DNA of 64,000 nt. It comes from Gammaproteobacteria bacterium (GTDB lineage: Bacteria > Pseudomonadota > Gammaproteobacteria > Competibacterales > Competibacteraceae). The stretch is taken from positions 228,904 through 292,903 of the forward strand of contig JACKNC010000003.1 in the NCBI GenBank assembly GCA_024235095.1. The letters are read 5' to 3'. A program made the translations under genes and the position numbers. The notes beneath the pieces are model-generated. The model saw only the letters and a program-made list of their open reading frames with translations, made no database searches and was not told the origin of the DNA. Positions 20,149 through 63,082 of this stretch are shown here, piece by piece (positions within the stretch are counted from its first letter, which is position 1; the number at the start of each line of letters is the position of its first letter).

Positions 20149-20221
20149 GGTGATTCCTCCTGTTGATCTCAACCATAGGGCACCCACCGCTACCTGTCAA
20201 AACTTCTGTGTCAGCCCACTA
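18975..20221 (-). mobile_element. IS630-family element, type A, copy 2
   Basis: Same inverted repeats and length as copy 1. Confidence 0.9.
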
Positions 20222-37170: not shown

Positions 37171-37171
37171 G
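35997..37171 (+). CDS. IS630-family transposase (-1 frameshift required)
   Basis: ORF translations are identical to copy 1. Confidence 0.8.
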
Positions 37172-44400: not shown

Positions 44401-44917
44401 CCGTCTGGAAACCCGGCGCAAGGAACTGGAGATGGAACGCCACTGCACGGTAGCGGACATTGTTCACCTGGGCCGGGCGCGGGTGATCCCTCACCCGGAA
44501 CGGCAAAGCCCACAAATTGCGCCGATGGTGCGGGATGACGAAGTCGAGCGGATTGCCGTCGATACCGTCCGGGCCTATGAGGAAGCGCGGGGCTGCGTGG
44601 TAGAAAGCGTGGAAGCCGACAATCGGGGCTTTGATCTCATCTCGCGCAAACCGCATCCCGAAGATCCCAAGAGCTTTATCGAAGTGCGTTTCATTGAAGT
44701 CAAAGGCCGGGCCGGAGTCGGGGAGATCTTCCTCAGCGCCAATGAATATCGGGCGGCGGAACGATTAAAAGGCGATTACTGGCTTTATGCGGTGTTCAAC
44801 TGTGTTTCCAAGCCCGAACTCCATCCCTATCAAAACCCGGCGCAACTCGACTGGCAACCGGTGACCAAGGTAGAGCATTACAAGATTAAGCCTGATTCAG
44901 TACTGGGGGTTCGATGA
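41480..44917 (+). CDS. SNF2/RAD54-family helicase fused to a C-terminal DUF3883 (restriction-endonuclease-like) domain
   Basis: 'LLADDPGAGKTIMAG' (motif I), 'IIVDEAHKMSA' (DEAH), 'ATEAAGEGINLQ', 'WNPIRLEQRVGRIHRYGQ' (motif VI). C-terminal 'GFDLISRK...IEVKGRAG...FLSANEYRAAERLKGDYWLYAVFNC'. Confidence 0.85.
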   Translation: MEPGMSQGKIKAGMTVSGSLLPEPIEVLALVPMGTSLKVIGRGTKTGMTHTPIFSEEQLNQLILSAEQEPFDGDAALFRLGVEAHRLGLAYEYDPYFSLSIARVDPLPHQLEAVYDYFIRLPRIRFLLADDPGAGKTIMAGLLLKELKARGLVQRTLIVTPANLTFQWQRELKDKFRENFEIVRGDVLRANYGQNPWQEKSQVVTSISWVSTREDAKASLLRSHWDLIIVDEAHKMSAYANDRKTLAYQLGEKLAEMTDHYLLMTATPHKGDPENFCRFLALLDRDVYGNIQSLQKAMREHEAPFYLRRTKEALVGFPDPETGAVHRLFTKRVVHTAEFELDGEELEFYDQLTAYVEDQSMRAAQDDSPRGRAVGFTMAMLQRRMASTLYAARRTLERMKERREKILADPDAYRQEQITKRLPDDFEDLTEEEQQEIVAALEDVVASVDPTILREEIARLTQLIDQARPLEKREIESKLTKLKQVLNEQGFFADPSKKLLIFTEHKDSLDYLAGDGKENRPYGKLLEWGLTVTQIHGGMKIGDRDTPGSRIYAEREFREQAQILVATEAAGEGINLQFCSRMINYDIPWNPIRLEQRVGRIHRYGQEYDCLIFNFVAKNTREGRVLQMLLERLKEIRRELGTDQVFDVVGEVFPANLLDKLFRDLYARRTNESAVTDRIVRDVDPKRFRAITESALEGLAKKDLNLSAIVGRSVEARERRLVPEAIEQFFVQAGPVVGMRSKPTAAESHIYRIGKVPRFLVQRGDALEPRFGRLGREYKLISFDKALLKRDPTLEWVTPGHPLFEVVREASLEQVEGHLKRGAVFFDIQRREPGFLDLFAASIKDGRGNTLHRRLFVMETEQSGSMAIRQPTVFLDINPAPAETSVLEPETVPARSLAEGYLYEHALKPWLEDNATERAREIVRVAQHVEISLHALIDRQNEQLADYLNRQIEGQTGLEGIIAQAEQHLDDLNNRLETRRKELEMERHCTVADIVHLGRARVIPHPERQSPQIAPMVRDDEVERIAVDTVRAYEEARGCVVESVEADNRGFDLISRKPHPEDPKSFIEVRFIEVKGRAGVGEIFLSANEYRAAERLKGDYWLYAVFNCVSKPELHPYQNPAQLDWQPVTKVEHYKIKPDSVLGVR

Positions 44918-46602
44918 TGGATATCGAAACCCTCAAGATACAGCTTGCTCTTGGTGAATCCGTCGAACGGGAATTCAAGTCTGATCGCCGACAGATCTCC
45001 GACAAGGAGATTTATGAAGAAGTGACCGCTATGGCCAATGCTTCCGGGGGAGTGCTGTTCATCGGTGTGGAAGATAATGGAATGGTATCAGGTGCAAAGC
45101 CCCGTCATGGGAAAATGACTGATGCTGTTAAGATGCAAGCGGCCATTTTTAACAATACCGTTCCCAGCATTAACACGCGAATCTCCTTGATTGCGCATCC
45201 CGATGGTCAGGTTATTGCTATCTCAGTTGATCCTTATCCAGAACCCTGTGCTACGACAACGGGCAAGTCGCTGCGGCGTACCCTTGGGGGTGATGGTAAA
45301 CCGCAAACCGTGGCCTACTATCCCCGCGACCATCGTTCCCGGCGCGTAGATTTGGGGCTTCTTGACTTTTCCGCTCAACCCATCCAAGGAACTGGTCTCT
45401 CTGACCTCGATCCTTTGGAATTTGAGCGGTTGCGGCAAACGATTACCCGTCTTCGGGGAGATCGTAGCTTGCTGGACCTCTCTGATGAAGATTTGGCCAA
45501 GGCGCTGAGATTGGTGGAAACCCAAGAAATCGGCCTTGTGCCTAACGTTGCTGGCCTGCTGCTGCTCGGTAGAGAAAAAGTGCTACGCGATGTCTTACCT
45601 ACCCATGAAGCACATTTTCAAGTTCTCGATAGCCAGCAACAAGTGAGAGTAAACGATACCTTTCATGGGCCATTGCTTCAAACCTTGGAGCATATAGAAG
45701 CTCGCTTTACCGCTCGAAACAACGAACAAGAGGTTGCAGTGGGCCTGTTTCGCCTGCCTGTGCCGGACTATTCCCTAATGGGCTTTCGGGAAGCTGTCAA
45801 CAATGCAGTGCTGCATCGAGACTTCAGTCAAATGCAAGCCGTGTATGTGCAGTGGCAACCCGACCATCTGCTGATTACCAATCCTGGTAGTCTCCCGTCT
45901 GGCGTGACCTTGGAAAACCTACTGGTCCATGAACCAAAGCCGCGTAATCCTCGTTTAGCAGAAGCATTTAAACGGATTGGCTTAGTGGAGCAGACGGGGC
46001 GTGGGGTAGACAAAATATTCCTAGGGCAACTGCAATACGGTCGTCCCGCACCGGACTACTCGCGTAGCGATGCCTACGGTGTGCGAGTGATTTTGCGTGG
46101 AGGGGAAGCCTCCCTTCAATTTGCAGCCTTTGTATTTGAGCAGGATAAACAAGGCCATCCTCTGACTTTGGACGATCTGCTCGTGCTGAACACGCTCTTT
46201 TTTGAGCGACAGATTGACTCGGAAACTGCCGCTAGGTTGCTCCAGAAAGAGAGTGCCAATGCGCGAGCTACTTTGGAGAGGTTGCACGAACGCGGTTTAA
46301 TTGAGCGACGGGGCAACAAGCGAGCGACTTCTTACCACCTCTCAGCCGCACTTTACCAGCGCTTTGATATGAAAGCGGAATATATTCGTGCTAAAGGATT
46401 TGGGCCAATTCAGCACGAACAGATGGTGCTCGAATATGCGCGCCAACATGGGGAGATTTCGCGCAAAAAAGCGGCTGAATTATGTCAACTTAATGTTCAT
46501 CAAGCGAGTCGGGTATTGCAACGTGTTAGCAGTAAAAATAAAGAATTGCAGTTAGTTGGAAATGGAAGGGGCGCTCGGTATGTCTGGAAACACCACAAAT
46601 AA
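44914..46602 (+). CDS. AlbA_2 (Schlafen-like divergent AAA) domain protein with C-terminal HTH domains (COG2865-type)
   Basis: 'ESVEREFKSD...EEVTAMANASGGVLFIGVEDNG' is the AlbA_2 N-terminus. 'NAVLHRDF' and 'GRGVDKIF' come later. The ATG overlaps the helicase stop (ATGA). Confidence 0.7.
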   Translation: MMDIETLKIQLALGESVEREFKSDRRQISDKEIYEEVTAMANASGGVLFIGVEDNGMVSGAKPRHGKMTDAVKMQAAIFNNTVPSINTRISLIAHPDGQVIAISVDPYPEPCATTTGKSLRRTLGGDGKPQTVAYYPRDHRSRRVDLGLLDFSAQPIQGTGLSDLDPLEFERLRQTITRLRGDRSLLDLSDEDLAKALRLVETQEIGLVPNVAGLLLLGREKVLRDVLPTHEAHFQVLDSQQQVRVNDTFHGPLLQTLEHIEARFTARNNEQEVAVGLFRLPVPDYSLMGFREAVNNAVLHRDFSQMQAVYVQWQPDHLLITNPGSLPSGVTLENLLVHEPKPRNPRLAEAFKRIGLVEQTGRGVDKIFLGQLQYGRPAPDYSRSDAYGVRVILRGGEASLQFAAFVFEQDKQGHPLTLDDLLVLNTLFFERQIDSETAARLLQKESANARATLERLHERGLIERRGNKRATSYHLSAALYQRFDMKAEYIRAKGFGPIQHEQMVLEYARQHGEISRKKAAELCQLNVHQASRVLQRVSSKNKELQLVGNGRGARYVWKHHK

Positions 46603-46683
46603 ACGCACGCGCTCGTTTGTATTTATTGTAGAAACGCGCGCGCTCGTTTATGCGCTCGTTTCCCAAATATCAGTGAGATCAGT

Positions 46684-49600
46684 ATGGATACTTTAGCCTA
46701 CCCCAAGCGCTTGATAGAAGTGGATTTGCCGATAGCAAGAATTTCGGCCCATGCGCGGCGGGAGAAATCCATTCGACATGGCCATATTTCGACCTTGCAT
46801 ATCTGGTGGGCCAGACGGCCACTGGCGGCCTGTCGGGCGGTGATCTGCGCCTCGCTCTGGCCTGATCCGGTGGATTTGAGCACCTGGGCTAAGCGGGGTG
46901 ATGAGGTTCCGGTAGGGGATGGTTCGGTGATAATCCGGCCTAGGCGGTTTTTGGATACCGCGCGGGAGCGGATGCTGGCCTGGGGAAAAGAACATCTTGG
47001 CAAGGTCAGTCGAGAGTCCTCCTCGCGCTTTATTGCCATTCAGAAGGGCAATAATATCCTTGCTGATCCCTGGGATTTGCAAAGAACGTTGCTGGATTTC
47101 ATCGCTGACTTTGCCAACTGGGATAATTCGACGGACAAGGATTACCTGGAAACCGCCCGCGTATTGACCCAAGCCGCGCATGAAGCCCTGGGCGGGGAAC
47201 TGGAGACGCGCCCGCTGGTGGTCGATCCGTTTGCTGGCGGTGGTTCGATTCCGCTGGAAGCCTTGCGCGTCGGGGCGGATGCCTTCGCTTCGGATTTGAA
47301 TCCGATCCCAGTATTGCTGAACAAGGTGGTGCTGGAATACATCCCGAAGTATGGCCAACGGCTTGCCGATGAAGTCCGCAAGTGGGGGGCCTGGATCAAG
47401 CAGGAAGCGGAGAAAGAGCTTGCGGAGTTTTACCCGAAAGACCCGGATGGAGCCACGCCAATTGCCTATCTTTGGGCGCGAACCATTCAGTGTGAAGGGC
47501 CGGGGTGTGGGGCGGAAGTGCCGTTGATGCGGTCGCTCTGGTTGGCGAAAAAGGGCAAACGTTCGGTGGCGTTGCGCATCGTCCCCAAACCTCAAGAAAA
47601 GCGGGTTGACTTTGAAATTATCGAGAATGCTAAAACCGGTGAAGAAAGACTGGGAACGGTCAAGCGTGGGTCGGCAACGTGTCCTTGCTGTGGATATACA
47701 ACGCCGGTGGCAAATGTTCGGAAGCAATTTAGGGCTAGGTGCGGCGGCACTAATGATGCACGTTTTTTGTGTGTAATATCTACTAAAAAGGGTGAACAAG
47801 GGCGTTTCTATAGAGTTCCCAATTCAAAGGATGAATCTGCTGCCTTTGGTGCTAAAGCTGAGTTAGAACGAATTAAAAATAAGCATAAAGGAACAATAAG
47901 TCTATTACCTGATGAAAAGATTGATATCCGAGGTATACGTCATACTTGGGCTATGATTTATGGTATCAATAATTGGAGTCATTGCTTCACTTCTCGACAA
48001 GCACTTGTGTTAGTAAAACTTTTTGATTTATCTGCTGCATATGAAAGATTAACAAATAATGAAAAACAAGAAACCCTATTGAAAGCAGCACAAACATGTA
48101 TAGCCCTTATTATTGATAAATTAGCACAATATAATTCGTCAATGTGCCGATGGAAAGCTAGTGGAGAGAATATTGTTGATACTTTTGGTCGGCAAGCGTT
48201 ACCAATGGTTTGGGATTTTGCTGAAGCAAACCCATTTGCTGGTGCCAGCGGTGATTTTTTAAATTTACTTGATTGGCATACAAATGCACTTGTCATTACT
48301 TCAAGCGCTATTCAAGGGCAAGTAGCATCTGTTGGTTCAACATCAGCAACCGTGCATCCGTATCCCGATGATTCTATAAGTGCATTTATAACAGATCCTC
48401 CATACTATGATTCAGTGCCTTACGCTTATCTTTCTGATTTTTTTTATGTTTGGCTTCGTAGAGCACTAAACCACATTTATACTCCAATAATGATGCATCC
48501 ACTTGTCCCAAAAGATGCTGAAATAGTTGTTGATAGACCCCATGAGCTAAGTAACTCAACGCATAATATAGCTTATTACGAGGGTGAACTAACTAAAGCT
48601 TTTAAAGAAGGCTGCCGCATAGTTCGCCATGATGGTATTGGTGTTATTGTCTTTGCCAGCAAAACAACTTCAAGTTGGGAAGCGATTTTGAAGGCGGTTG
48701 TGGATGCTGGTTGGACTATCACGGGTTCTTGGCCGATTGATACGGAAATGGAAACCCGCGTTGCCGCGCAAGGACAAGCGCGACTAGCGTCTTCTGTCCA
48801 TCTGATTGTTCGTCCACGATCTGAACAAAATATCGGCGATTGGCGCGATGTACTCACCGAACTTCCCCAGCGTATCCATGCTTGGATGCCGCGCCTCGCT
48901 GACGAAGGCGTGGTCGGCGCTGATGCAATTTTTGCCTGTCTCGGCCCCGCTCTCGAAGTGTTCAGCCGCTACAGCCGGGTAGAAAAATCCAGCGGGGAAG
49001 CGGTGACCCTCGGTGAATATCTCGAACACGTCTGGGCTGCCGTCTCCAAAGAAGCCCTCTCGATGATCTTCAAAGACCCGGATACGGCTGGCCTGGAACC
49101 GGATGCTCGGCTGACCGCCATGTGGCTTTGGACCTTGGGCGCAAATAACAGCGGTGCCGGTGCTGAGGAATCCGAACAATCTGAAGATGATGAGGCCGAT
49201 GAGGAATCCAGTAAAGCGCCGAAAGTAACCGGCTTTACCCTGGAATTCGATGCCGCCCGCAAGATTGCCCAAGGTCTTGGTGTCCATCTGGAAAAATCGC
49301 CCTCGGTCGTGGAAGTGAAAGGCGATAAAGCCAAGTTGCTCTCAGTTGCGGAACGGGTCAAGTATCTTTTCGGCAAGGAGGCGGAAACCGCTGTTACCGG
49401 CAAAACCCCGCGCAAGAAGAAAAAAGAACCTGTCCAGCAATCCCTGTTTGCCGAATTAGAAGCCGCCGAATCGGCTGCGGAAGCCGAATGGGGCGATGTG
49501 AAAGGCCCCAAACCCGGAACCACGGTCTTGGATCGCCTGCATCAAGCGATGGTGTTGTTTGCCGCTGGGCGTGGGGAAGCGATGAAACGCTTCATCGTGG

Positions 49601-49731
49601 AAGAAGGGATTGGCAACGATGCCCGCTTCTGGAAACTTGCACAATCGCTGACGGCGCTCTATCCGGTGGGTAGCGATGAAAAGCGGTGGGTGGATGGCGT
49701 CTTAGCCCGTAAAAAAGGATTAGGTTTTTAA
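46684..49731 (+). CDS. DUF1156-family DNA methyltransferase (N6-A/N4-C type, COG1743-like) with a Zn-ribbon
   Basis: '[38 protein letters not shown]' (DUF1156), '[14 protein letters not shown]' (motif I), 'CEGPGCG...CPCCGY' (Zn ribbon), '[12 protein letters not shown]' (motif IV). Confidence 0.85.
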   Translation: [1015 protein letters not shown]

Positions 49732-49744
49732 GGAGATAAAAACA

Positions 49745-52705
49745 ATGAGCAATCTCAAGCCCTGGTATCAAGTCGTCGTTCCGCGTGAAGATTTACGCGA
49801 TAATCGCCCACTGGATGCCTCCGAATTTGCCGTCCACCTCGATCATATCCGCGAACACCGCGCCCATCCCGATTATATCGATCCCGCGCGGTTCTTCTCC
49901 CGAACCTACCTGACCCAAAGCCTGCTCGATCTCTCCTCGCAAGTAGTGCGTCGTCTCTCCGGCATCAAGGTGGAAACCTCCGCCGTGTTTAACATGGCGA
50001 CGCAGTTTGGCGGGGGCAAAACTCACTCTTTGACCGCGCTCTACCATCTCGCCCAAGGTGGCCCTGCGGCACAGAACTGGAAAGGTGTGGACAGCATCCT
50101 CAACCGGGCGCAAGTGAAAGAGATTCCGCAAGCAGCGGTCGCGGTTTTTGTCGGCACAGAGTTTGATGTGGTAGAGGGCAGGAAAGGAGAAGGACAACCG
50201 CAGCGAAAAACCCCTTGGGGAGAGATCGCTTGGCAGCTTGGCGGTGAGGAAACCTTTGCCGCTGTCGCCCAGCATGATGAACAGGGTATTGCTCCAGCCG
50301 GAGACGTGCTGCGCCGCATGTTGCCGGGTGGCCCCACGCTGATTCTCCTTGATGAGTTAATGAACTACGCTTCGCGCTCGCGCCGCACTGGCCTAGCCTC
50401 ACAACTCTATGATTTCCTCCAGAACCTCTCCGAAGAAGCCCGTGCCCGCGATAACCTGGTGCTCTGTGTTTCGATTCCAGGATCAACCCAATTGGAGATG
50501 AACCCTGAAGATCAACAAAGCTATGAGTCCTACAAAAAATTGCTGGATCGGGTGGGCAAGGCCATCAGCATGTCCTCGGAAACCGAAGTGACAGAAATCA
50601 TTCGCCGCCGCCTCTTCGACTGGTATGGGTTACCCGCCGATGGAAAAAAAGTGGCAGCAGAATACGGAGCCTGGGTCCAGGATCATCCCACAGAATTAGC
50701 GAATCTAGGTGGAGAATCCCCGGAAGAACTCTTCCTGGCCTGCTATCCCTTTCACCCTTCCTTGATTTCCGTTTTTCAGCGCAAATGGCAAAGCCTGCCG
50801 CGCTTTCAACGAACTCGGGGCATTCTTCGTCTGCTTGCCCTCTGGATTGCACGGTCCTACCAGGAAGAACACCGCAAGAATTCACGGGAACCGCTCATCA
50901 CGCTCGGTTCTGCGCCACTCGATGACCAAACTTTCCGGGATGCCTTGTTTGAACAACTGGGTTCCGATCAACTCTCGATTCCGGTCACTACGGATATTCT
51001 TGGAAAGAAAGATGCTCACGCCCTTCGTCTTGACCGGGAAGCCATTGACGCGATCAAGAAAGCCCGCCTCCATCAGCGCGTGGCCACGACCATTTTCTTC
51101 GAGAGTAACGGCGGGCAAAGCCAAACCCGCATGGAAGCGACCGTTCCTGAAATCCGGGCAGCGGTCGGCCATACCGATCTAAATCTGGCCGATGTGGAAA
51201 CCGTGTTAGAGGGCCTCACCGCCAACTGTTTTTACCTCAATTGGGATCGCAACCGTTACCGGTTCGGTCTGCGTCCCAACCTCAATCAAATGCTGGTCAC
51301 GCGCCGGGGAACGGTGAAGGATCAGGACATTGAGGCCCGTATTCAGCAAACCACATTGGATTTGGTCAAATCTGGCAGTAAAGCCGTGGATCGGCGTTGT
51401 TTTCCAACCCGGTCAAATGATATTCCTGACCGTCCCCAACTGACCCTGGTGGTCTTGGGCTTAGCGCATCCCGCGCAAGACCCAGCAACCCAGAATTTCA
51501 TGGAAACCCTTTTGCGAGAGTGTGGTACCGCAGGACGCACCTATAAATCAGGCTTGCTGTTTATCGCTCCCGATCAGGGCGGGGCGGTCATCGAAGCGGC
51601 GCGCAACGTGCTGGCTTGGGAAGATATCGAAGCGGATGAAGACACCGCCCGACAACTGGAAGAAGCCCAGCGCCGTTCTCTCGGTCAAAGCCTGGACCGC
51701 GCCAAGGCGGATCTGAAGGAATCTCTCTGGCGGGCTTATCGCCATGTGTTTCTGCTCAGCAAAGACAACACGCTCAAAAACCTTGACCTGGGGCAAATCA
51801 CCTCCAGCATGGCCCATTCAATCTGCGATCTGGTAGTCAATCAACTTGTCAAGGACGATGAGATTACGGCTATCGTAGGACCCAATAAGCTGGTGCGGCT
51901 CTGGCCGCCCGCGCTGACTGAATGGTCCACGAAAGCGGTACGGGATGCCTTTTTTGCTTCACCAGCCTTACCTCGCTTGCTCGATCCTAACTCCATCAGG
52001 CGCACGATTGCCGATGGCGTCACTTCCAAGCTGTTTGGTTACGCCAGCCGAGATGCCTCGGGTCAACTCCAACTGGATTGTTTTGGTGAAAGTCTCTCGG
52101 AACAGGAAGTGGAGATCAGTGATGATCTCTTTATTCTGCGTGCTCAAGATGCCGAACGACTCATCGAACCGCCGCACTTGTATAGGCTGGTCCTTCAACC
52201 GAGTGCAATTGACGTTAGCCCTGGTGAGCACATCACCTTCAAGGTCAGTGGTGTTGACCAATACGGCCAAAGCTTCCCGGTGGAAAACGCAACCTGGTCA
52301 GCTCCCGAATGCACGGTAAATAACGAGGGCAGCTTTCAGGCGAATAGCGCGCCGGGTCTCTACTTGGTGACCGTGCAGGTGGATAACCTCCAAGCGGAGG
52401 CCAAGGTACGGGTTAAGCCGCCGATCATCTCGACACCTGTTCCACCTAGAGAAGAACACCAAACCGCCGAAGAAGAACATCCACCTGGCTATAGTGAACA
52501 AAAAATACGATGGAGTGGAACCATTCCACCCCGGAAATGGATGAACTTTTACACCAAGGTCATCGCAAAGCTCGCGAACTCGCCGGGATTGACCGTACAG
52601 GTCAGCCTAGAAGCATCAGCAGAAGGAGACAGTGCTTCGGCGAAGATTGAGGATATAAAGAGTGCTCTGAAGGAGTTGGGGTTGGACGAGAGTGTAAATG
52701 GATGA
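49745..52705 (+). CDS. DUF499-family P-loop ATPase (BrxC/PglY-like) with a C-terminal Ig-like region
   Basis: AGGAG lies upstream of the ATG. 'KPWYQVVVPREDLRDNRPLDASEFAVHLDHI...FFSRTYLTQSL...FGGGKTHSLTALYHL', 'LILLDELMNY'. Confidence 0.85.
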   Translation: MSNLKPWYQVVVPREDLRDNRPLDASEFAVHLDHIREHRAHPDYIDPARFFSRTYLTQSLLDLSSQVVRRLSGIKVETSAVFNMATQFGGGKTHSLTALYHLAQGGPAAQNWKGVDSILNRAQVKEIPQAAVAVFVGTEFDVVEGRKGEGQPQRKTPWGEIAWQLGGEETFAAVAQHDEQGIAPAGDVLRRMLPGGPTLILLDELMNYASRSRRTGLASQLYDFLQNLSEEARARDNLVLCVSIPGSTQLEMNPEDQQSYESYKKLLDRVGKAISMSSETEVTEIIRRRLFDWYGLPADGKKVAAEYGAWVQDHPTELANLGGESPEELFLACYPFHPSLISVFQRKWQSLPRFQRTRGILRLLALWIARSYQEEHRKNSREPLITLGSAPLDDQTFRDALFEQLGSDQLSIPVTTDILGKKDAHALRLDREAIDAIKKARLHQRVATTIFFESNGGQSQTRMEATVPEIRAAVGHTDLNLADVETVLEGLTANCFYLNWDRNRYRFGLRPNLNQMLVTRRGTVKDQDIEARIQQTTLDLVKSGSKAVDRRCFPTRSNDIPDRPQLTLVVLGLAHPAQDPATQNFMETLLRECGTAGRTYKSGLLFIAPDQGGAVIEAARNVLAWEDIEADEDTARQLEEAQRRSLGQSLDRAKADLKESLWRAYRHVFLLSKDNTLKNLDLGQITSSMAHSICDLVVNQLVKDDEITAIVGPNKLVRLWPPALTEWSTKAVRDAFFASPALPRLLDPNSIRRTIADGVTSKLFGYASRDASGQLQLDCFGESLSEQEVEISDDLFILRAQDAERLIEPPHLYRLVLQPSAIDVSPGEHITFKVSGVDQYGQSFPVENATWSAPECTVNNEGSFQANSAPGLYLVTVQVDNLQAEAKVRVKPPIISTPVPPREEHQTAEEEHPPGYSEQKIRWSGTIPPRKWMNFYTKVIAKLANSPGLTVQVSLEASAEGDSASAKIEDIKSALKELGLDESVNG

Positions 52706-53666
52706 TTGTTTTTGGTTTGCGCGAAATGGAGATACCCTAATAATGAGGATTTTACCGATTGAGCTGATCCCTGAAACAATGTGGAAGAAACAGGTACTTT
52801 ACTTACCTGGTGAATTAATAACCTCATATTTAGTAGAATTAAAAGATCGTGGCCTTCTTCAAGAAGCAAAGCAAGGTACAGATAGGAAAGATATTCATGG
52901 AGGTTTTAGTGATAAAGAAACATTGGAGCATTTTACTCATCGATTCGGTGTTTCATCTGGCAGATCTGAGTTTACTATACTAGCGCCAAATGAGGACCTG
53001 ACAGAATATTCTGATGCACTATTAAACACATTTTCAGAAGGGCATATTGGATTGTTAGATATTCCATGTGGAACAGGAGCATCGTGTGTAACTTTTCTCA
53101 CAGTCTTAGCTGAACTTCGGGCTAGGCGTGTATTACCAACTCTTCCATTAACAATTTCGATTGTAGGGGGCGATTGTTCAATGGCAGCAAGAGAAATATG
53201 CCAAAGTATGTTAAATAGAGCGAGGACTATCTTAGCCGATCAAGGAATTATAATCAATTACAATCTGACTCAGTGGGATGCAACTCGAAATGATGAAACT
53301 GCAAAAATGATTGATGAGTGGTTTAAGTTAGCAAGTGATGCGTGTGAGTACGTAGTATGTATTAGTAATTTTAGTGGCGCGTTAATAAAAGGAAAAATGT
53401 TTGACGATTTTACACCATGTTTGTCACAGATACTAGCGCGACTACACGATAAAAAAAGTACTTTGATATGGATCGAACCAATTAACTCAAACGCTGTAAA
53501 AGGACTAATTCCAAAGGTATTTAAATGGCTAAATAGATATGTGCCTTGGTTTTCTAACGTGCATAAAAAAGGAGAATTTCCTTCGGCAGAGTATCGAATG
53601 AGTAACCCTATTAATCAACATATACATCAAACAGGGGTTCAAGTACAACGCTTCGTGAGAGATTAA
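52698..53666 (+). CDS. Class-I SAM-methyltransferase-fold protein with a non-canonical catalytic loop (function unknown)
   Basis: 'LLDIPCGTGAS' (motif I), 'IVGGDCS', and 'VCISNFSG' in the position of (D/N)PP(Y/F). The ATG overlaps the DUF499 stop; an alternative ATG is at 52743. The gene is AT-rich. Confidence 0.55.
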   Translation: MDDCFWFARNGDTLIMRILPIELIPETMWKKQVLYLPGELITSYLVELKDRGLLQEAKQGTDRKDIHGGFSDKETLEHFTHRFGVSSGRSEFTILAPNEDLTEYSDALLNTFSEGHIGLLDIPCGTGASCVTFLTVLAELRARRVLPTLPLTISIVGGDCSMAAREICQSMLNRARTILADQGIIINYNLTQWDATRNDETAKMIDEWFKLASDACEYVVCISNFSGALIKGKMFDDFTPCLSQILARLHDKKSTLIWIEPINSNAVKGLIPKVFKWLNRYVPWFSNVHKKGEFPSAEYRMSNPINQHIHQTGVQVQRFVRD

Positions 53667-53670
53667 GATA

Positions 53671-55431
53671 ATGTGGCCAGTCCCATCAAATATGTTGGCT
53701 ATTCGTGCTTTGCAAGCGACACGAAAGCTTCATTTGCCAACGTATGTTGCAACAAGATTTTTTGTTGACTCAATTGTTGGATATCAAGATAGTTCATGGA
53801 GCTATGTTACCATTCCCAGAAAATATCCTATGCGTAAGCAGGGTCAATTTTTAGTATCAAAGAAATTAAAGAAAATATTAGAGAATGGTTGTTGTGAATA
53901 TCGAGACTTCCTTGTGTCGAGTCCGTCTACTGCATTAACCGAGTCTCTAATACTTGCTTATCTATCACAAGAATCATCTTTTCATAAAGAAAATTATATA
54001 TATAGCTACAGATGGCCAAATAATACGGAAGAGTGTCCATATAATTTCGAGCATTATATTAATGGTTATAAATGTCGAAATAACGATATTTTAAATTTAT
54101 TATTAGATAATAGTAACAACATTGTTATTGTTTCCGATATAGAAAATTTTTATCCAAGTATAAATCAAGAAACTGTATTAAAAAAATTTAATCAAGCGCT
54201 CAAGGATACGAAAATACAAGACAGTATAAAGGTTACAGCTCTGAAATTTATCGAGCATTTATTTAATTACTATCCTGATGGTAAAGGGATTCCGATTGGC
54301 CCAGAAATTAGTCACATCCTCGCTGATTTTGCTCTGTCTACTATAGATACTACTTTGTCGGCACAATTTCCTGGTAGGTATTTTCGGTATGTTGATGATA
54401 TTGTACTCGTTGTGGACAATGACAAAAAAAATTCTGTAATAGAAATGCTAGAAAATTTAGCAAGTGATGAAGGTCTAACTATTCATCCACAGAAGACAGA
54501 TTGTCTATCCGGGAGTGAATGGTTGACCTATGGGCCACATACTCAACATCAGGTTAGAAGAAATTCATTTGAATCACTTGTTTTTTTTATAAAAGTATTC
54601 TTGTTAACCCATCGAAATAGAGAAGATGAATTAGCGACAAGTCTATTAGAAGAAGGTTTTTCTCTTCCGATTAGTCGATTAACATCCAAAAGCAGAGAAT
54701 CCAACTTTTTTGGGAACTTTAAATATCTTCTTGAAAGAAGATGGAACATTGCATGGCAAGCGTGGAAAATAAGAAAAAAAGATCTTATTAAAATGGCAAG
54801 GGAAGTGAGAAACGAAGTAAAAAGAGAATTATATGATATTCTCTTAGAAAAGCCACCTGAAAATAAAACAAGAAAAAAATGGTTTCTTCAAAGATTGAGA
54901 TACCTCACTAACAGATCAATCTATCTATTTCCGCCTAATGAATTAACTCATTTAGTTGAACATTTAAGCCCCTTTCCTGAATTTCAGGATACTATTGCTT
55001 TGATAAATCTATTAGTAAAAGATAGTTATAAAGATATATTAGGTATGCCAGGACCAGTATTAAATACTGCTGCAAGTTTACTACGGCAAGCAAATAGAAA
55101 ATTACCCCCTATCACTTTAGATAGCCACTCAGATCAAGTTATTATAGATTCAGTTAGTATCTTATTATTATTTGGAGTTGTTGACCTGCAACGTAACGCT
55201 CTTATTAAAGTTAACCAAACAACATCCGAGTTACTGCAATTTTGTGCAAATCAACCAAAATCAAGTGATATGCAACTAATACAAGATTTTTCTTATATAA
55301 ATGAAATTAGAACACTCCAATATCCACACTTACATGATAGCTATGTAAATATATTAGAAACAAGATTTTCTGATCTTGAATCCCCTGTATTAGATGCATT
55401 AGACATTGGTGGGGGTTACTTATCTTGGTAA
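53671..55431 (+). CDS. Reverse transcriptase, Abi/UG-like (stand-alone RT with a long helical C-terminal extension)
   Basis: RT motifs 'VIVSDIENFYPSI' (A), 'GIPIGPEISHILADFAL' (B), 'YFRYVDDIVLVV' (C) and 'GLTIHPQKT' (D). It starts 4 nt after the upstream gene. Confidence 0.8.
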   Translation: MWPVPSNMLAIRALQATRKLHLPTYVATRFFVDSIVGYQDSSWSYVTIPRKYPMRKQGQFLVSKKLKKILENGCCEYRDFLVSSPSTALTESLILAYLSQESSFHKENYIYSYRWPNNTEECPYNFEHYINGYKCRNNDILNLLLDNSNNIVIVSDIENFYPSINQETVLKKFNQALKDTKIQDSIKVTALKFIEHLFNYYPDGKGIPIGPEISHILADFALSTIDTTLSAQFPGRYFRYVDDIVLVVDNDKKNSVIEMLENLASDEGLTIHPQKTDCLSGSEWLTYGPHTQHQVRRNSFESLVFFIKVFLLTHRNREDELATSLLEEGFSLPISRLTSKSRESNFFGNFKYLLERRWNIAWQAWKIRKKDLIKMAREVRNEVKRELYDILLEKPPENKTRKKWFLQRLRYLTNRSIYLFPPNELTHLVEHLSPFPEFQDTIALINLLVKDSYKDILGMPGPVLNTAASLLRQANRKLPPITLDSHSDQVIIDSVSILLLFGVVDLQRNALIKVNQTTSELLQFCANQPKSSDMQLIQDFSYINEIRTLQYPHLHDSYVNILETRFSDLESPVLDALDIGGGYLSW

Positions 55432-55565
55432 AATTAAACAATGATTCGATAGATCATATTCATAAAGTCATTCAAAAAGCCATTTATTAATAGAAAACAT
55501 TAATACTCAACTTTACCTTTAATTATATTATTAAAATAATGGTTTCTTAAATCTCACAATTATTA

Positions 55566-57312: not shown

Positions 57313-58305
57313 CTAATACTGCACGGCAAAGCTTGCACTTTCCCGGTAATGCAGCTTGCGCTTGTCATACATTTTGGTCGTGGCGATATGGCTATGCCCC
57401 ACACTCGCCTGCACGGCCTCAATCGGACACTTCCGGTCCAGAGCCTCGGTAATAAACGTCGCTCGGGCGCTGTGCGGGGTGACGCCGATGGGTAACCCGG
57501 CCTCCAGCGCATAGCGATGAAACAGCTTGCTGATCTGTCGGCTGGTCAGCGGTTTACGCCGTTCCCGGCGCTGAACTGCGAGAAACAGCGGGCTCTCCCG
57601 TTCGGCCCCGTGACCACTTTCGGAAAGATAGGCCCGCAAGGCCAGTTGCAGTTCCTGGTGAATGGCAATCCGGTTGCGCTTGCCGCCCTTGAGGATGAAA
57701 TCCAATACCCAGTAGCCACCATCTTCAAAAAAATCCTTCACTTTGAGGGTGGTGACCTCATTAATTCGGCAACCGGTGTAGAACAGGACATGCAAAATAG
57801 CACGGTCCCGAATGCCCTTGAGCTGGTCTAGCTGGGGGGCATGGAGAAGACTCCGTACTTGTTCGGGTGTGAGAACGGCGGCTTCCACACGCTGGGCGCT
57901 GACTTTGGGGCGGCGAACTCCGGTGGCTGGGTTGCGTGTCGCCACTTGCTGCTCACAGAGATGCTTAAACAGCGAAGACACCGCCGCTAGGCGGTTTTGC
58001 ACCGTGCGGGGGCTGGCCCCAGACTGGATGAGGTGCTCCCGCCAAGCAATCAAGTGACTTTGCCCAATGCCGCGTAACTCATCGGACGACTGGAAACCAT
58101 GAAAGGCAATGAAACTCTGTACGGCCGCTTGATAGGTTCGTTTCGTGCGGGGCGAGACAAAATTGGCTAACCACACCGATTCCTCGGGAATGTCCGCTAA
58201 CGTGGCGTGAGTCACCGTGGACAGTTCGCGGTCTTTTTCCGATACGGGGGCTGGGGATTTCGGCGAAAGGGTCATGGATGCAGTGTCTTTTTGAGGGTGA
58301 TTCAA
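57313..58305 (-). CDS. Tyrosine recombinase/integrase (XerC/D-like); the start may instead be the ATG at 58275
   Basis: 'RDRAILHVLFYTGCRINE' and '...TPHSARATFITEAL...VQASVGHSHIATTKMYDK' give the R, HxxR and Y motifs. Confidence 0.85.
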   Translation of the reverse strand: MNHPQKDTASMTLSPKSPAPVSEKDRELSTVTHATLADIPEESVWLANFVSPRTKRTYQAAVQSFIAFHGFQSSDELRGIGQSHLIAWREHLIQSGASPRTVQNRLAAVSSLFKHLCEQQVATRNPATGVRRPKVSAQRVEAAVLTPEQVRSLLHAPQLDQLKGIRDRAILHVLFYTGCRINEVTTLKVKDFFEDGGYWVLDFILKGGKRNRIAIHQELQLALRAYLSESGHGAERESPLFLAVQRRERRKPLTSRQISKLFHRYALEAGLPIGVTPHSARATFITEALDRKCPIEAVQASVGHSHIATTKMYDKRKLHYRESASFAVQY

Positions 58306-58525: not shown

Positions 58526-59248
58526 CTAATCCCAAATCGATTTAAAATTCGATAGTATTTGATGTTTAGCATCATCAATAGAAACACCCCATATATTTGC
58601 TAATATTGGAAGAGTTGATTCTACATCCCATGGCATCAATGGTTGATCACCTATTTTGGCAAATGGGCCGTCTGTCTCAGTCAAAATCTTATTCCTTGGT
58701 ATGAACATCACTAGTTCCTTACCTTTTTTTGTGTTTAACATGGCAGGGCCAATAGAAAATAAACATCCTAACTGTATAGCTTTCTTAAGCTCACTTTTAC
58801 TACCTGTAAACCAGTGTAGTATAGGTATGCCAGGTACACTTTTCAATTCGTCTAACACAACTGCTGCACTATAGCGGGTATGTACACTCATAATTCGCCC
58901 CCCAGAACGACCTACACTCTTGAGAATATGGCGAAACACTTTGAGCTGAACATCCCAGTGATCTACAAATCCTTTTCCATGGTCAAGACCAATCTCTCCC
59001 ACATATTTAGCGCTAGGAAGCAGCGTGTCGAAAAGCTCAAGTTCACTAGAGCGCTGATGAGCGATCTGTGGATGCAAACCTAACGCTGTTCGAATACACT
59101 GACTGCCTTCAGCGAGTTTACATGTCCCGTCCCAAGCCTTTGGTGTCGTTGTCACTGATAGGACATAAATGCCTCTTGATTTACATTCATCGGCTACCTT
59201 GAATGGATCTGGATACAGATCGAGATGGCAATGCATATCGATGCTCAT
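58526..59248 (-). CDS. qatD: QatD, TatD-family metal-dependent hydrolase/DNase
   Basis: 'DMHCHLD', 'GEIGLD', 'SVHTR', 'LHWF' and 'TETDGPF' are TatD motifs. It is the last gene of a KAP/QatB/QueC-like/TatD cluster. Confidence 0.8.
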   Translation of the reverse strand: MSIDMHCHLDLYPDPFKVADECKSRGIYVLSVTTTPKAWDGTCKLAEGSQCIRTALGLHPQIAHQRSSELELFDTLLPSAKYVGEIGLDHGKGFVDHWDVQLKVFRHILKSVGRSGGRIMSVHTRYSAAVVLDELKSVPGIPILHWFTGSKSELKKAIQLGCLFSIGPAMLNTKKGKELVMFIPRNKILTETDGPFAKIGDQPLMPWDVESTLPILANIWGVSIDDAKHQILSNFKSIWD

Positions 59249-60573
59249 AGTACCCCCTCATCCTTAAGAAAAGCCTCCACTTCCTCCAATCCTTGTGAAA
59301 AGACCGTTTGAAAATTCCCAAATTGATTTGGAGGCAGATTACCACTATCCAAAATCCAGGAGCCAAGCTTCCGGGTTCTTTTTTGCATTACAGCAATGGA
59401 TAGCGCCAGGAGGTCATCCCTGCGGTCGATTTCATTAAGAACGTCAGGCAACTTATTAAAAGTATAGTCTATTCCTTCGACAAGCCCTCCTACATGGAGG
59501 GCAGCTCGACGAATAATACAAGGTACGCATACTCCACACTGTTGATTTGATCGCTTCCAATGGCTGCACGACACAGTACTACCAATAATACCTGTCAACG
59601 ACTGTTTATTTAGGCATTCTGCTGCCATTTGACCTTTGGTTTTGAACTGGTAGGGGTTAATGATGTTGCAAGGAATACCTATTGCATCAAAGAGCTTTTG
59701 GATGCTGTCAATGAAATATGGGTGAGTGGTACGGGTACTAAGTGTCCCGATCCGTCTAGGTGTTAATGGCGCATTCAACGATATAAACCCGTTCTCTGGA
59801 ACAAACAAGTCAACTCGCTCTTGCTTCGAGACTGTTTGCACTGCACTTGCACCAATCGCAGCAAACGCAAGAAAGTTGAGGCTACGTGTCCGCATAGTGA
59901 TATCAGTCTCACCGATGCATAGATGCGGATCTGCATTGACCTCAAATCGTGAGTATCGTCCCTGGAGTGCTTTGGCTATCTGATCTTGGTGGGATTTGTC
60001 GCCCTTATAAGCATGGCTCACCAGTAAAGGGGTTTTGCCTTGAGCCAATAAATCAATTGCCCCAATAGCTGAATCTAATCCTCCAGAGAACAGGCATACA
60101 CAATTGAGTCCTTTTAACTGAACTAGATGAAAGTGATTACGCTGACGATATGGTAATGGGGGGGAGTAACCACCTTCCTGAAAATCAAAATTCCAGATAT
60201 CGCCACTGAGAAAATGTAGAGCTCTCTCCAAGTTTTTCTTCAATGGTTTCCAGCGGTCTGGTTCATGGAGTGGCACTTGAAGAAAAAACTGCCGGGTCCA
60301 GCCATCCGCAGTGTCCGCTCGACAAACAAAGGTATCTGCGGCAGTCACGGCAAGCGCTATAGTTAAAAAATCCATAACCTGACCTGGAATGCACACTCCC
60401 AGTCGCTTTATCTTGTCGATAACTGGGTGTCCGATGATAGATATGTCCCCGCGACTTTGGCCACTTAATTCATAAAGCTGCACTGGGAGCAGATCATTGC
60501 TAGCCGCAGGCAGCATCTGGTGATTGTGATGAAAAACTAATAGCGTCACTAATAAGCCTCCCACTCCTTCCAA
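59245..60573 (-). CDS. qatC: QatC, QueC-like PP-loop ATPase
   Basis: 'CLFSGGLDSAIG' (SGGxDS PP-loop) and the C-terminal Cys cluster 'CSHWKRSNQQCGVCVPCIIRR'. The start is uncertain, with an alternative ATG at 60516. Confidence 0.8.
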   Translation of the reverse strand: MEGVGGLLVTLLVFHHNHQMLPAASNDLLPVQLYELSGQSRGDISIIGHPVIDKIKRLGVCIPGQVMDFLTIALAVTAADTFVCRADTADGWTRQFFLQVPLHEPDRWKPLKKNLERALHFLSGDIWNFDFQEGGYSPPLPYRQRNHFHLVQLKGLNCVCLFSGGLDSAIGAIDLLAQGKTPLLVSHAYKGDKSHQDQIAKALQGRYSRFEVNADPHLCIGETDITMRTRSLNFLAFAAIGASAVQTVSKQERVDLFVPENGFISLNAPLTPRRIGTLSTRTTHPYFIDSIQKLFDAIGIPCNIINPYQFKTKGQMAAECLNKQSLTGIIGSTVSCSHWKRSNQQCGVCVPCIIRRAALHVGGLVEGIDYTFNKLPDVLNEIDRRDDLLALSIAVMQKRTRKLGSWILDSGNLPPNQFGNFQTVFSQGLEEVEAFLKDEGVL

Positions 60574-61298
60574 GCATCAATAATAGCCTGGCGCTCGATC
60601 TGAGCCATTTGTTGTTGGGTGAATGTACGAACATTACTAGTGAGTTTGGAAGCCATATGCCTGTCGACAACTACCTTGATCAATTCCCGTAAGTCCGTTT
60701 CGGCGCGTATCGCCATCACCGGGGTATCTGCCTTATTCCAAGCCTTGTTTGAGTCCAATACCATCTGAAGGAAAATGCTCTCCGCCAAATACCCAATCAT
60801 GGTATTGATGATAATATCGTCTGTGATACACTCTGGATCAAAGATGATTACGCCATCCAGTGCTTCCACTAGAGCATGGTTCATCGCTACACGGATCTTC
60901 TCTGAATCCCCGTCTTCAGTGGTAAGTGCTTGGGTAATAGCTGATATTGCCAGTTCGCATGGAAGTCCGGTCAGACTGCTAATATCTACACCAATCCTGC
61001 CTGGACCAGCTTGCGCACCTGCTAATGCGCCAAAGAGCCCTGCTCCAGCCTGGATAACACTGCCCATGCGCCGAGCTGCACTGCTACTTCCGCCACTGGC
61101 TCCGCGAGCATAGTGGCCAACAGCACTCTTCAGATCGCTCTGATCGCCACCAGATACGAAACGCCCCAATGACTGGCGGAAACTTTTGAATCTAGCTGGT
61201 TGAGGCGTGGCTTGCGGTTGCTGTGGTTGGTTGTCCGCCCATGGTGGTATTAGTGGTGAACCGCCACCCGGACCAGTGCTTGATTGCGATGTTCCCAT
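60549..61298 (-). CDS. qatB: QatB (uncharacterised Qat component)
   Basis: 249 aa with a Gly/Pro/Gln-rich N-terminus followed by a helical domain. It sits between the KAP NTPase and the QueC-like gene, with overlapping stop/start codons. Confidence 0.6.
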   Translation of the reverse strand: MGTSQSSTGPGGGSPLIPPWADNQPQQPQATPQPARFKSFRQSLGRFVSGGDQSDLKSAVGHYARGASGGSSSAARRMGSVIQAGAGLFGALAGAQAGPGRIGVDISSLTGLPCELAISAITQALTTEDGDSEKIRVAMNHALVEALDGVIIFDPECITDDIIINTMIGYLAESIFLQMVLDSNKAWNKADTPVMAIRAETDLRELIKVVVDRHMASKLTSNVRTFTQQQMAQIERQAIIDAWKEWEAY

Positions 61299-63082
61299 TA
61301 AGCGCCCTTATACCATTGCTCTTCTTTTAGCGCCGCCCTCATCCAAGGTATGGGTTTATCGCGAAAATCTTGCAGAAATCGAATCAGAATCTTGGCAGCA
61401 TTGGATGAATGGCGGGCCAGCCGAAGAGCACCTGCAAATCCTTTAGGTTGCCGAGACCAGTCGGATACTTGCCTCAAATGGCTGATGACCCCCTCCATAA
61501 CCGGAATCTGCTCTTCCAGTGGCAGGTTGTTCAGGTGATTCTCAGCCGTAGGCGAGGTAATACTCTTCATCTCCACTAATACGTTTAGTACTTCTCGACC
61601 AACCGGTGACAAACCCACTACGTAGGTACCAATCGGCATGGTTTCTCGGGACAAGTAAATTGCAGCCCGAAGGTCAACTCCACTTAGCTTAGGTTCGAGC
61701 CTGGTCCACTCAATAATGAAGGATTTTGTGGTCGGGTTATTCGTCCACGCCTCGGGGGCATTATCGGGTATCTTGCCATCCCCTTCTTCCATCTGCTTGA
61801 GCAGCAAGGGCTTTCCCTGTTCGGCATCCACTAGCCGATAGAAATCTGCTGTTGCCTGCGCTCCCACGCATCGTTCAAATATTACTAATTTGGTAATAAT
61901 GGCTTCATCCAGGGGCATTGAGCGGCGCTGTGCAATCTGTGCGCGCATTTTGATAACATTCAACAGCCGTTTCACGATCCGTGGGTTCCCGTGGATAATC
62001 GGGGAATTAGCCAGCACTGGTGCAATACGGTCCGCGCGCTCAAATGCACTGGCTAGGTCGCTATCCTCTGATTCCCCAGTCAGTGCGAGTGCATCTTGTC
62101 GGGATATGGGATCATCCTTCCATGATTGTTGCAGGGCATTTTCAAGACCTTCCCGGAGAAGTACGCACTTTTCCTTAGACAAGCCAAGATCGACGGCATA
62201 CAGCATAAACAGGTAAGAACGGACTTCCCGAACACCGGCTTTTGGTACTCTAATAGGGACCTGAATCAGCTTATCCAAGTAATCGATCCTGTGACGGTCC
62301 GAGGCTCCCTTGAAATAGTCGGCTACAGAAGAACGAATCATCTCTTCGTCTGCTGCAATAATAAACGCAGTATTGTTTAGGAACAGGAACAGCCGAATAG
62401 CTTCGAGGGTATGGATGGCATTCGTCGGCAGACAGCGATCAAGGTTGTCGATGACTACTACTAGGGGCCTTTTGAGCTCTTTTAGGATTTCCCCGTACTC
62501 TTTACGGAATGCATCAATTTGCTGAGGCGGACTCTTTTTCGCTTCAGACTTCAGCAAACCGCTAACCTGATCTTTGACCTCTTTAGCTGTTTCACCCAGG
62601 TTTGCATACTCCTCCTGATCTTGGATGCCATCAGCAGCACTCCCCAAAGCACCTACACTGCGTGCAATGAGCCCACCTGTAGGTATGCCGGCCCACATAG
62701 CTGCACCCTCAGCTAAAAAGCCTAGGAGCCTAATACCGCTGACTTGGGAGCAAAGCTTCTTGATCTTTTCGGCTAGACTTGCGTTCCCATCCGTAGCTTT
62801 TGTCAATTCAGTCGCGATCACATCTAGGAGGGCTGCCCGTGCATCGTCGTACCCCTGATACAGCCAGGCATCAAACTCAATAACTATCCAATTCTTCTCA
62901 TCTTTTTTGAGATCCTGCTCGATCAACCTCAAAAGAGAGGATTTGCCAGCACCCCAGTTGCCGAACACGCCAATGGAGACCGGTAACATCCCATCTACAG
63001 CAAGTATGTCGACTGCCAGTTGTGAAACTTCCCCAAAATTAAGGTAATCCTCTTTAGATTCCGTATCCGACCACATTCTCAA
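61298..63082 (-). CDS. qatA: QatA, KAP-family P-loop NTPase
   Basis: 'GVFGNWGAGKSSLL' (Walker A) and 'LVVVIDNLDRC' (KAP-type Walker B). Confidence 0.8.
   Translation of the reverse strand: MRMWSDTESKEDYLNFGEVSQLAVDILAVDGMLPVSIGVFGNWGAGKSSLLRLIEQDLKKDEKNWIVIEFDAWLYQGYDDARAALLDVIATELTKATDGNASLAEKIKKLCSQVSGIRLLGFLAEGAAMWAGIPTGGLIARSVGALGSAADGIQDQEEYANLGETAKEVKDQVSGLLKSEAKKSPPQQIDAFRKEYGEILKELKRPLVVVIDNLDRCLPTNAIHTLEAIRLFLFLNNTAFIIAADEEMIRSSVADYFKGASDRHRIDYLDKLIQVPIRVPKAGVREVRSYLFMLYAVDLGLSKEKCVLLREGLENALQQSWKDDPISRQDALALTGESEDSDLASAFERADRIAPVLANSPIIHGNPRIVKRLLNVIKMRAQIAQRRSMPLDEAIITKLVIFERCVGAQATADFYRLVDAEQGKPLLLKQMEEGDGKIPDNAPEAWTNNPTTKSFIIEWTRLEPKLSGVDLRAAIYLSRETMPIGTYVVGLSPVGREVLNVLVEMKSITSPTAENHLNNLPLEEQIPVMEGVISHLRQVSDWSRQPKGFAGALRLARHSSNAAKILIRFLQDFRDKPIPWMRAALKEEQWYKGA

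Follow-up and report, generated by a model that had tools for sequence, protein, structure and literature searches.

A two-gene cassette encoding a reverse transcriptase (RT) of the UG36 group and a protein with a predicted methyltransferase (MTase) fold was identified directly behind a helicase-methylase-ATPase (Hma) operon in a 64,000-nucleotide stretch of DNA from a Gammaproteobacteria bacterium of the Competibacteraceae (assembly GCA_024235095.1, contig JACKNC010000003.1, positions 228,904 to 292,903 of the forward strand), henceforth referred to as the window. That the 586-aa protein is a UG36 RT is held with high confidence on the strength of its profile match, and the finding is an instance of this catalogued family, not a new class. 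Considered as a whole, the cassette is probably a defence-associated reverse transcriptase (DRT) system of the UG36 type: a self-contained mobile two-gene module that sits as a passenger at the 3' end of the Hma operon, within a defence island. The parts of the locus concerned are the following.

52743 to 53666, + strand: MTase-fold partner gene of the UG36 RT; probable ATG at 52743, 307 aa (longest open reading frame (ORF) from 52698, 322 aa)
53671 to 55431, + strand: UG36-group UG/Abi RT gene, 586 aa (PADLOC RT_UG36, Pfam RVT_1)
52533 to 52705, + strand: 3' tail of the window HmaC gene, of which a degenerate non-coding copy lies upstream of the cassette in the closest relative
55432 to 55565, no strand: AT-rich spacer between the convergent RT and DUF3991/Toprim genes; a functional role in the cassette is unsupported

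The reverse transcriptase belongs to the UG36 group

The 586-aa protein matches the PADLOC model RT_UG36 over almost its full length (501.8 bits, E = 7.1e-151, residues 7-583 on model positions 3-555 of 557), against 91.6 bits (E = 1.2e-26) for the next-best model, UG17, and 71 bits for UG35; the assignment rests on this profile match. Pfam RVT_1 is also matched above its gathering score (E = 7.5e-12). Palm motifs A to D (VIVSDIENFYPSI, GIPIGPEISHILADFAL, YFRYVDDIVLVV and GLTIHPQKT) lie at about residues 150-275, with YVDD at 240-243, and a helical domain of about 290 aa follows. Residues D156, Y161, G206, G210, Y237-R239-V241-D242-D243 and S112-Y113 are invariant across 35 sequences. Judged by its translation, the catalytic core, with motifs A to D and YxDD, is intact.

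A preliminary description of this region, made from the letters alone, had proposed an Abi/UG-like RT behind an MTase-fold gene. Both of its ORFs (52698-53666, 322 aa, and 53671-55431, 586 aa) and all the motifs it quoted are present in the translations, and the RVT_1 and RT_UG36 matches, together with the intact palm motifs, bear out the type of RT. Likewise in agreement with it, the Pfam, NCBIfam, Rfam and repeat searches gave no maturase or endonuclease domain and no Cas1 in the cassette proteins, nor an msr/msd-type repeat pair; the retron and group II RT models of NCBIfam were matched only below threshold, far from their cut-offs. Its statement that no named RT class has an MTase-fold partner did not hold, as UG36 had already been catalogued with a methylase-domain gene (PMC9226505). 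The RT thus does fall into a class whose partner matches, but one that is catalogued and predicted and not experimentally characterised. In that survey, UG36 is described as a UG/Abi RT with an associated methylase-domain gene, predicted to be defensive from individual loci, and is likened to UG25 and UG35, which have methylase and RT in one fusion protein (Mestre et al. 2022; PMC9226505).

An AlphaFold2 model of the RT (predicted local distance difference test score, pLDDT, 89.7) comprises an N-terminal region, palm and fingers, and an all-helical part at residues ∼300-563, which is modelled with high confidence. The best Foldseek matches, spanning nearly the whole chain, are the class 1 RTs hexameric DRT6, AbiA, Abi-P2, DRT4, AbiK and UG15, with alignments of about 600 columns and modest TM-scores of 0.31-0.50; below these come DRT9, DRT2, retron and group II RTs. 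The model is accordingly read as a fold like that of the UG/Abi RTs with a helical C-terminal domain. When the RT profile was compared with PDB sequences, only the palm was aligned and the region of the DRT4 priming tyrosine was not reached.

Base composition, start codon and transcription of the cassette

At about 52.65-52.75 kb, GC content drops from 0.49-0.60 to 0.19-0.44; it is back up at about 55.65 kb. Per gene it amounts to 0.55 for HmaC, 0.37 for the partner, 0.33 for the RT and 0.53 for the downstream genes, so that the AT-rich shift reported earlier at about 52.70 kb is reproduced (0.33-0.37 in the cassette versus about 0.55 in HmaC). The two-gene pair looks to have been acquired horizontally. 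A search for flanking direct or inverted repeats, as a signature of insertion, yielded only short AT-rich matches at chance level.

The two cassette ORFs are 4 nt apart (53666/53671). The 322-aa ORF starts at an ATG (52698) that overlaps the TGA of HmaC (52703-52705), which had previously been taken as the junction of HmaC and the partner gene. This overlap exists for the ORF, but 52698 is unlikely to be where translation begins and was discarded: the partner's homologues measure about 307 aa, and their alignment begins at window residue M16. Moreover, a GGAG is found 12 nt 5' of the ATG at 52743, with equal spacing in the closest relative. For these reasons the true start is probably 52743, which leaves a 37-nt gap behind HmaC instead of a stop/start overlap. 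Co-transcription with the upstream operon, as previously suggested, is plausible, given a gap of no more than 37 nt and a terminator scan that gave no + strand terminator-like site between HmaC and the partner gene. The sole + strand site of the scan lies inside the partner gene, and promoter and terminator counts were not above those of shuffled sequence.

The partner protein has a predicted methyltransferase fold

The translation of the partner gene contains LLDIPCGTGAS, IVGGDCS and VCISNFSG, and the protein matches no Pfam or NCBIfam model. The profile search returned only a weak match to PADLOC RT_UG35 (E = 4.8e-7, model positions 74-167), which falls in the N-terminal part of that model; it is there that UG35 RTs have the methylase domain fused to them. 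An AlphaFold2 model (pLDDT 93.6) displays the canonical seven-stranded sheet of class I MTases behind a helical N-terminal region, and all Foldseek matches are MTases, including DOT1L, RNA and small-molecule MTases, and viral cap and DNA MTases. These matches are distant (E ∼1e-5, TM-scores 0.3-0.4), with no close solved structure among them, and the partner profile gave only marginal matches (E ∼0.3) against PDB sequences. Conservation was counted in 30 diverse family members, with the following result.

D121, motif I: 30/30
G125, motif I: 30/30
G127, motif I: 29/30
D/E159, acidic residue after strand 2: 30/30
D194, after strand 3: 26/30
N224, first residue of the motif IV loop N-F-S-G: 20/30, Ala in the rest

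On the basis of the model and these residues, we are confident that the partner has a class I fold of the S-adenosylmethionine (SAM)-dependent MTases with a conserved predicted SAM pocket. The amino-MTase motif IV, (D/N/S)PP(Y/F/W), was not found in the same 30 sequences; the loop after strand 4 reads S-N-F-S-G, without prolines. The MTase fold with a non-canonical catalytic loop claimed in the preliminary description is thereby upheld by structure prediction and Foldseek, and the loop is not even conserved within the family. Further invariant residues are G68-G69, R89, R141 and E260-P261, while H78 is present in 29/30; R89, H78, E260-P261 and the others could make up an alternative active site or a contact surface for the RT.

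Both genes form a conserved two-component unit

The RT has 115 homologues of very uniform length (∼580 aa), and a scan of one genome per species revealed 72 UG36-type loci in more than a dozen phyla. As judged with the partner profile, the partner lies directly upstream of the RT and on the same strand in all 62 intact pairs, namely 61 genome loci and the window; in the remaining 11 of the 72 genome loci, the end of the contig truncates the locus or a gene is disrupted. In 49 additional loci, mostly metagenomic, the partner is upstream in 44, and the other five begin at a contig edge. The junction between both genes is a 4-nt overlap in 35 of the 62 pairs and falls within −8 to +9 nt in 51. 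Given the usual 4-nt overlap, the genes are probably translationally coupled, their spacing being the one expected from such coupling.

An exhaustive profile search for the partner family resulted in 425 representatives at 50% clustering. Among the 150 of these that were listed, nearly all are stand-alone proteins of about 300 aa and at least two are in-frame fusions of partner and RT. The strict synteny, the tight junctions and the in-frame fusions show the pair to be a conserved two-component unit, and its products almost certainly act together. One fusion protein, P0260 (663 aa), has its partner domain (residues 4-268) joined directly to an RT that starts at motif A and is without the usual 150-residue N-terminal region; this is due either to an architecture of its own or to an artefact of assembly or annotation. 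UG36 homologues were not found in phage records; IMG/VR gave two matches covering the palm only, the plasmid search a single match, and an exact-peptide scan of JGI metagenomes no close relatives.

The module recurs inside restriction operons

In 53 of 56 loci the cassette is poorer in GC than its flanks, with a median difference of −0.07, the window (−0.155) being among the extremes. Across the family, the UG36 pair behaves as a self-contained mobile passenger module, with neighbours that are non-random and include type I restriction-modification (R-M), DISARM, Hma, SoFic and Qat-like genes. Type I R-M subunits adjoin or surround the pair in about 20 loci (for example L001, L049, L086, L087 and the Aliarcobacter plasmid pAFAEC), and in L002 the order is hsdR, pair, hsdM, hsdS, with overlapping junctions. 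A DISARM-type DrmMI methylase neighbours the pair in six loci, and in L063 the pair lies inside a DISARM operon, between DrmD/DrmMI and DrmA/DrmB. Pairs embedded in DISARM are flanked by genes for an LmuB-like SMC ATPase and the HEC-05 candidate defence gene (L063, 6937-8949 and 11734-13503; L054, 6962-8938), and on account of these flanking genes several passengers are considered to be stacked within one DISARM operon. Operonisation with restriction genes was already reported as a generic signature of defence by Mestre et al. (2022; PMC9226505), and the embedding in R-M-type operons is consistent with the literature, though not spelled out there for UG36.

A universal third gene was rejected as a candidate component, as the co-directional neighbours are heterogeneous and the Pfam domain seen most often among them, a generic helicase domain, is carried by 5 of the 72 neighbour proteins. 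As observations of their own, the gene immediately upstream of the pair in L022 (7241-9055) encodes a NERD-UvrD helicase, with related proteins in L031, L053 and L068, and one neighbour carries DUF1848. Such UvrD-like and DUF1848 neighbours hint at shared ancestry, or at accessory genes held in common, among the methylase-linked RT groups.

The pair is thus found together throughout the neighbourhood survey, mostly without the Hma genes. HmaB and HmaC were not found in the other 61 intact pair loci of the genome scan, nor in the metagenome loci, except in the closest relatives (L081-L083). The preliminary description had presented the embedding of an RT in a DUF1156/DUF499 locus as unfamiliar: it recurs in these relatives, but not beyond them, and is no signature of the family.

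A relic of the HmaC tail in the closest relative

The closest relative of the cassette is represented by three metagenomic contigs, L081-L083, whose RT and partner are 69% and 70% identical to those of the window, respectively; at the nucleotide level the cassette is 75.8% identical over 2.7 kb. In these contigs, too, HmaC is directly upstream of the pair, with 26% identity to the window HmaC and a stronger match to the PADLOC HmaC profile (1e-279). Between the stop codon of this complete HmaC gene and the partner gene, L081 contains a 182-nt non-coding stretch that is a frameshifted relic of the 3' end of a window-type HmaC. By blastn, window positions 52533-52614 align with L081 positions 2573-2654 (78% identity, E = 2e-13), and the alignment goes on past 52614 with 28-nt and 17-nt deletions.

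The unit common to both lineages accordingly consists of an HmaC tail, the partner gene and the RT gene. There are two possible histories: a transfer of this shared unit to a second Hma locus, or a replacement of the Hma system that precedes it. Under either of them, the sub-lineage was kept behind an HmaC gene. Recombination through HmaC 3' ends, or a benefit of the position, could account for this placement, which is seen in two lineages only.

Search for a template RNA

A scan of 52.0-56.0 kb against Rfam gave no match at E ≤ 1. The stretch upstream of the partner gene (52540-52745) folds no better than shuffled sequence (z = −0.78), and the same is true of the 134-nt downstream spacer (55432-55565; z = −1.49), in which the scan gave no terminator-like site. 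Rfam and the repeat search yielded no msr-msd, intron ribozyme or template/variable repeat pair at the locus. Homology between the window and its closest relative stops exactly at the stop codon of the RT gene. Moreover, in eight loci, fewer than 60 nt separate the pair from the nearest called ORF on both sides, and at least five of these eight stay tight when over-extended ORF starts are allowed for. Taken together, the missing Rfam and fold signals, the end of homology at the stop codon and the tight flanks in eight loci make a flanking non-coding RNA (ncRNA) common to the UG36 family unlikely.

Proposed mechanism and alternative explanations

DRT4 and DRT6 are oligomeric and carry out constitutive protein-primed, template-independent synthesis of single-stranded DNA (ssDNA), which becomes toxic once phage proteins shield it from host exonucleases (PMC12783706). 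For the UG36 pair, we tentatively propose a mechanism along related lines, which as a whole should be seen as one possibility. Partner and RT would form a complex, in which the RT would be oligomeric and would synthesise DNA with no flanking ncRNA dedicated to it. As there is no room for such an RNA, protein-primed, untemplated ssDNA synthesis is judged to be the most likely mode, as in the nearest structural relatives. The invariant Tyr113 (S112-Y113), on a long, well-predicted and conserved loop before the fingers, would be a candidate priming residue by analogy with Tyr125 of DRT4. The partner would use or sense SAM, either modifying the product or a target or gating the RT, and the outcome would be abortive infection.

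Several points weigh against this picture of the cassette and its mechanism. The assignment of the RT to the untemplated class is not secure, as the Foldseek TM-scores are only 0.3-0.5, and the next-best PADLOC models belong to class 2 groups that use ncRNA (UG17/DRT10, Drt8 and Drt3a). An ncRNA could also be hidden inside the coding sequence. In the absence of a conserved motif IV, catalysis by the partner is putative and unproven. Finally, UG36 was left unclassified among the UG/Abi RTs by Mestre et al. (2022; PMC9226505), and the searched literature gave no experiments on UG36 and no later studies of it, so that its defensive role is a prediction.

The same class 2 models (UG17, Drt8, Drt3a) speak for an RT that copies a dedicated ncRNA, in the manner of DRT2, DRT9 and DRT10, from a template within or overlapping the cassette (e.g., 52533-52742), with the partner modifying the RNA or the cDNA. 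Mestre et al. (2022; PMC9226505) consider ncRNAs possible in other UG groups, and about 170 nt upstream of the partner gene are 78% conserved in the closest relative though non-coding there. This stretch, however, is homologous to the coding tail of HmaC, and a pseudogene relic accounts for its conservation; it shows neither a fold signal (z = −0.78) nor an Rfam match. With many loci having tight junctions on both sides and unrelated neighbours, and with top structural matches that are mostly untemplated RTs, a dedicated ncRNA is unlikely. A selfish or housekeeping retroelement outside defence, be it a degenerate group II intron, a retron or a diversity-generating retroelement, might be suspected from the generic RVT_1 similarity and the sub-threshold group II and retron RT matches. 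It is very improbable in view of the full-length UG36 match and the consistently defensive context: the cassette has no maturase or endonuclease domain and no intron, retron or other Rfam RNA, and its NCBIfam matches are all far below the cut-offs.

Two further explanations start from the company that the pair keeps. It might be a functional extension of Hma, forming a six-gene variant in which the RT and the MTase-like protein depend on or regulate HmaABC. The shared strand, the gap of at most 37 nt behind HmaC and the lack of a + strand terminator between them in the scan would fit, as would the closest relative (69% identical RT), which likewise lies directly behind HmaC, albeit a 26% identical one and with the relic in between. 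We nevertheless regard such an extension as quite unlikely, since neither HmaB nor HmaC occurs at the other 61 intact genome-scan pairs or at metagenome loci beyond the closest relatives, the pair is elsewhere found inside type I R-M or DISARM operons or beside unrelated genes, the GC break at the junction is sharp, and Hma was defined as a three-gene operon (PMC8565338). Alternatively, the partner might be a non-catalytic SAM sensor, and the module a guard of restriction systems that depend on SAM (type I R-M, DISARM and Hma): phage anti-restriction factors would deplete SAM or block the restriction complex, whereupon the partner would release the RT and DNA synthesis would abort the infection. 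This would agree with a SAM pocket that is kept while motif IV is degenerate (N224 in 20/30) and with the association with SAM-using systems (type I R-M in about 20 loci, the DISARM methylase in six, Hma in two lineages), and it would explain why the sub-lineage stayed behind HmaC through an exchange of Hma. On the other hand, the support comes from context, type I R-M operons being general hotspots for defence genes, and the invariant R89, H78 and E260-P261 could form a real active site; we thus consider a sensor of this kind, together with its proposed trigger, decidedly unlikely.

Comparison with known systems

Nothing that defines the UG36 group (Mestre et al. 2022, NAR 50:6084) differs in the window: the full-length profile match, an RT of about 580 aa without an additional Pfam domain, a separate adjacent methylase-domain gene and the defence-island context are all shared. 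No evident alpha-Rep-like domain was seen in UG36 by Mestre et al. (2022), whereas the C-terminal domain modelled here is predicted to fold like those of solved UG/Abi RTs. UG35 and UG25 also combine an MTase-fold domain with an RT, but as class 1 methylase-RT fusion proteins, while the genes are separate in UG36, where natural fusions are rare. The UvrD-like helicase of UG35 and the DUF1848 protein of UG25 appear in only a few UG36 loci and are not regular partners. With the protein-primed, template-independent DNA polymerases DRT4 (UG15), DRT6 (UG12), AbiK, Abi-P2 and AbiA, the UG36 RT shares a palm followed by a C-terminal domain that is predicted to be helical and, probably, independence from a flanking ncRNA. 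These systems, however, are mostly single genes without an MTase-fold partner; the likeness to UG36 stems from the predicted fold, and sequence similarity to the UG36 RT is confined to the palm.

As to Hma, the window has HmaA, HmaB and HmaC in canonical order among the four upstream genes. The RT pair and a Schlafen-like gene are additions absent from most Hma loci, just as Hma and the Schlafen-like gene are absent from most UG36 loci. A defence gene embedded in a restriction operon is exemplified by PrrC within the EcoprrI type I R-M locus. Both cases have in common a module of the abortive-infection type that is read in the same direction as a restriction operon and lies within it or at its end; PrrC, however, is an anticodon nuclease, while the UG36 module consists of an RT and an MTase-fold protein and its coupling to restriction is only putative.

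What the present analysis adds to the catalogued family is the strict synteny, the usual 4-nt overlap and the rare fusions, confidently predicted folds for both proteins, a search for flanking ncRNA in which none was found, the repeated occurrence inside type I R-M, DISARM and Hma operons, the relic of the HmaC tail, and a probable correction of the start codon.

The Hma operon and the surrounding defence island

The methylase/ATPase/helicase operon upstream of the cassette, left anonymous in the preliminary description, is the Hma system according to PADLOC. Hma was introduced as a three-gene helicase-methylase-ATPase candidate defence operon by Payne et al. (2021; PMC8565338). In the window it is composed as follows.

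41480 to 52705, + strand: Hma operon with passenger (PADLOC and Pfam)
41480 to 44917, + strand: HmaA, SNF2 helicase (PADLOC E = 7.5e-190)
44914 to 46602, + strand: Schlafen/AlbA_2 and HATPase_c_4 passenger, between HmaA and HmaB (Pfam domains)
46684 to 49731, + strand: HmaB, DUF1156 methylase (PADLOC E = 8.6e-125)
49745 to 52705, + strand: HmaC, DUF499 ATPase (PADLOC E = 3.9e-118)

The Schlafen/AlbA_2 gene (44914-46602) overlaps the HmaA stop by 4 nt. Homologues are located in or near other UG36 loci (L028, L062, L088 and L107), in L088 between the methylase and specificity genes of a type I R-M system, and the gene appears to be another passenger, or a regulator, that recurs in restriction operons. 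Inside HmaB, GC content dips to 0.37 over 500 bp (48000-48500), compared with 0.5-0.56 elsewhere in the gene, and this stretch may be an exchanged target-recognition segment. The PADLOC HmaC profile aligns with the window HmaC only up to residue 784, leaving residues ∼785-986 (52100-52705) unmatched. By eye, this C-terminus is made up of an Ig-like segment, a Pro/Glu-rich linker and then the tail shared with the relic in L081; it may itself be mosaic.

The region from 40 to 63 kb is a defence island, with a SoFic gene (40272-41318), a tyrosine integrase gene (57313-58305) and a Qat-like TatD/QueC/KAP set. The latter is a row of consecutive genes on the − strand (58526-63082) for a TatD DNase, a QueC-like protein, a 249-aa ORF and a KAP-family NTPase, which presumably resembles the QatABCD defence system. 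The window as a whole is unusually rich in insertion sequences. Four ORFs of 230 aa were noted (2265-2957, 13019-13711, 31694-32386 and 33861-34553), of which the one scanned has an IS240-type DDE transposase domain, as well as three ORF pairs of equal length (5821-7034, 18974-20187 and 35958-37171), of which the one scanned has HTH_32 and DDE_3 and which we take to be IS630-like. No tRNA genes were found in the 64,000 nt.

Implications

UG36 is among the UG/Abi groups without experiments, and no mechanism has been established for any RT that works with an MTase-like protein. The survey presented here defines a two-gene module, residues for mutation and a recurrent setting in methylation-based restriction operons. 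With this two-gene definition, these concrete residues and probably no flanking ncRNA needed, the UG36 module should be easy to clone and to test. If the proposal is true, a SAM-linked, DNA-synthesising defence would constitute a new logic for the fast-moving DRT field.

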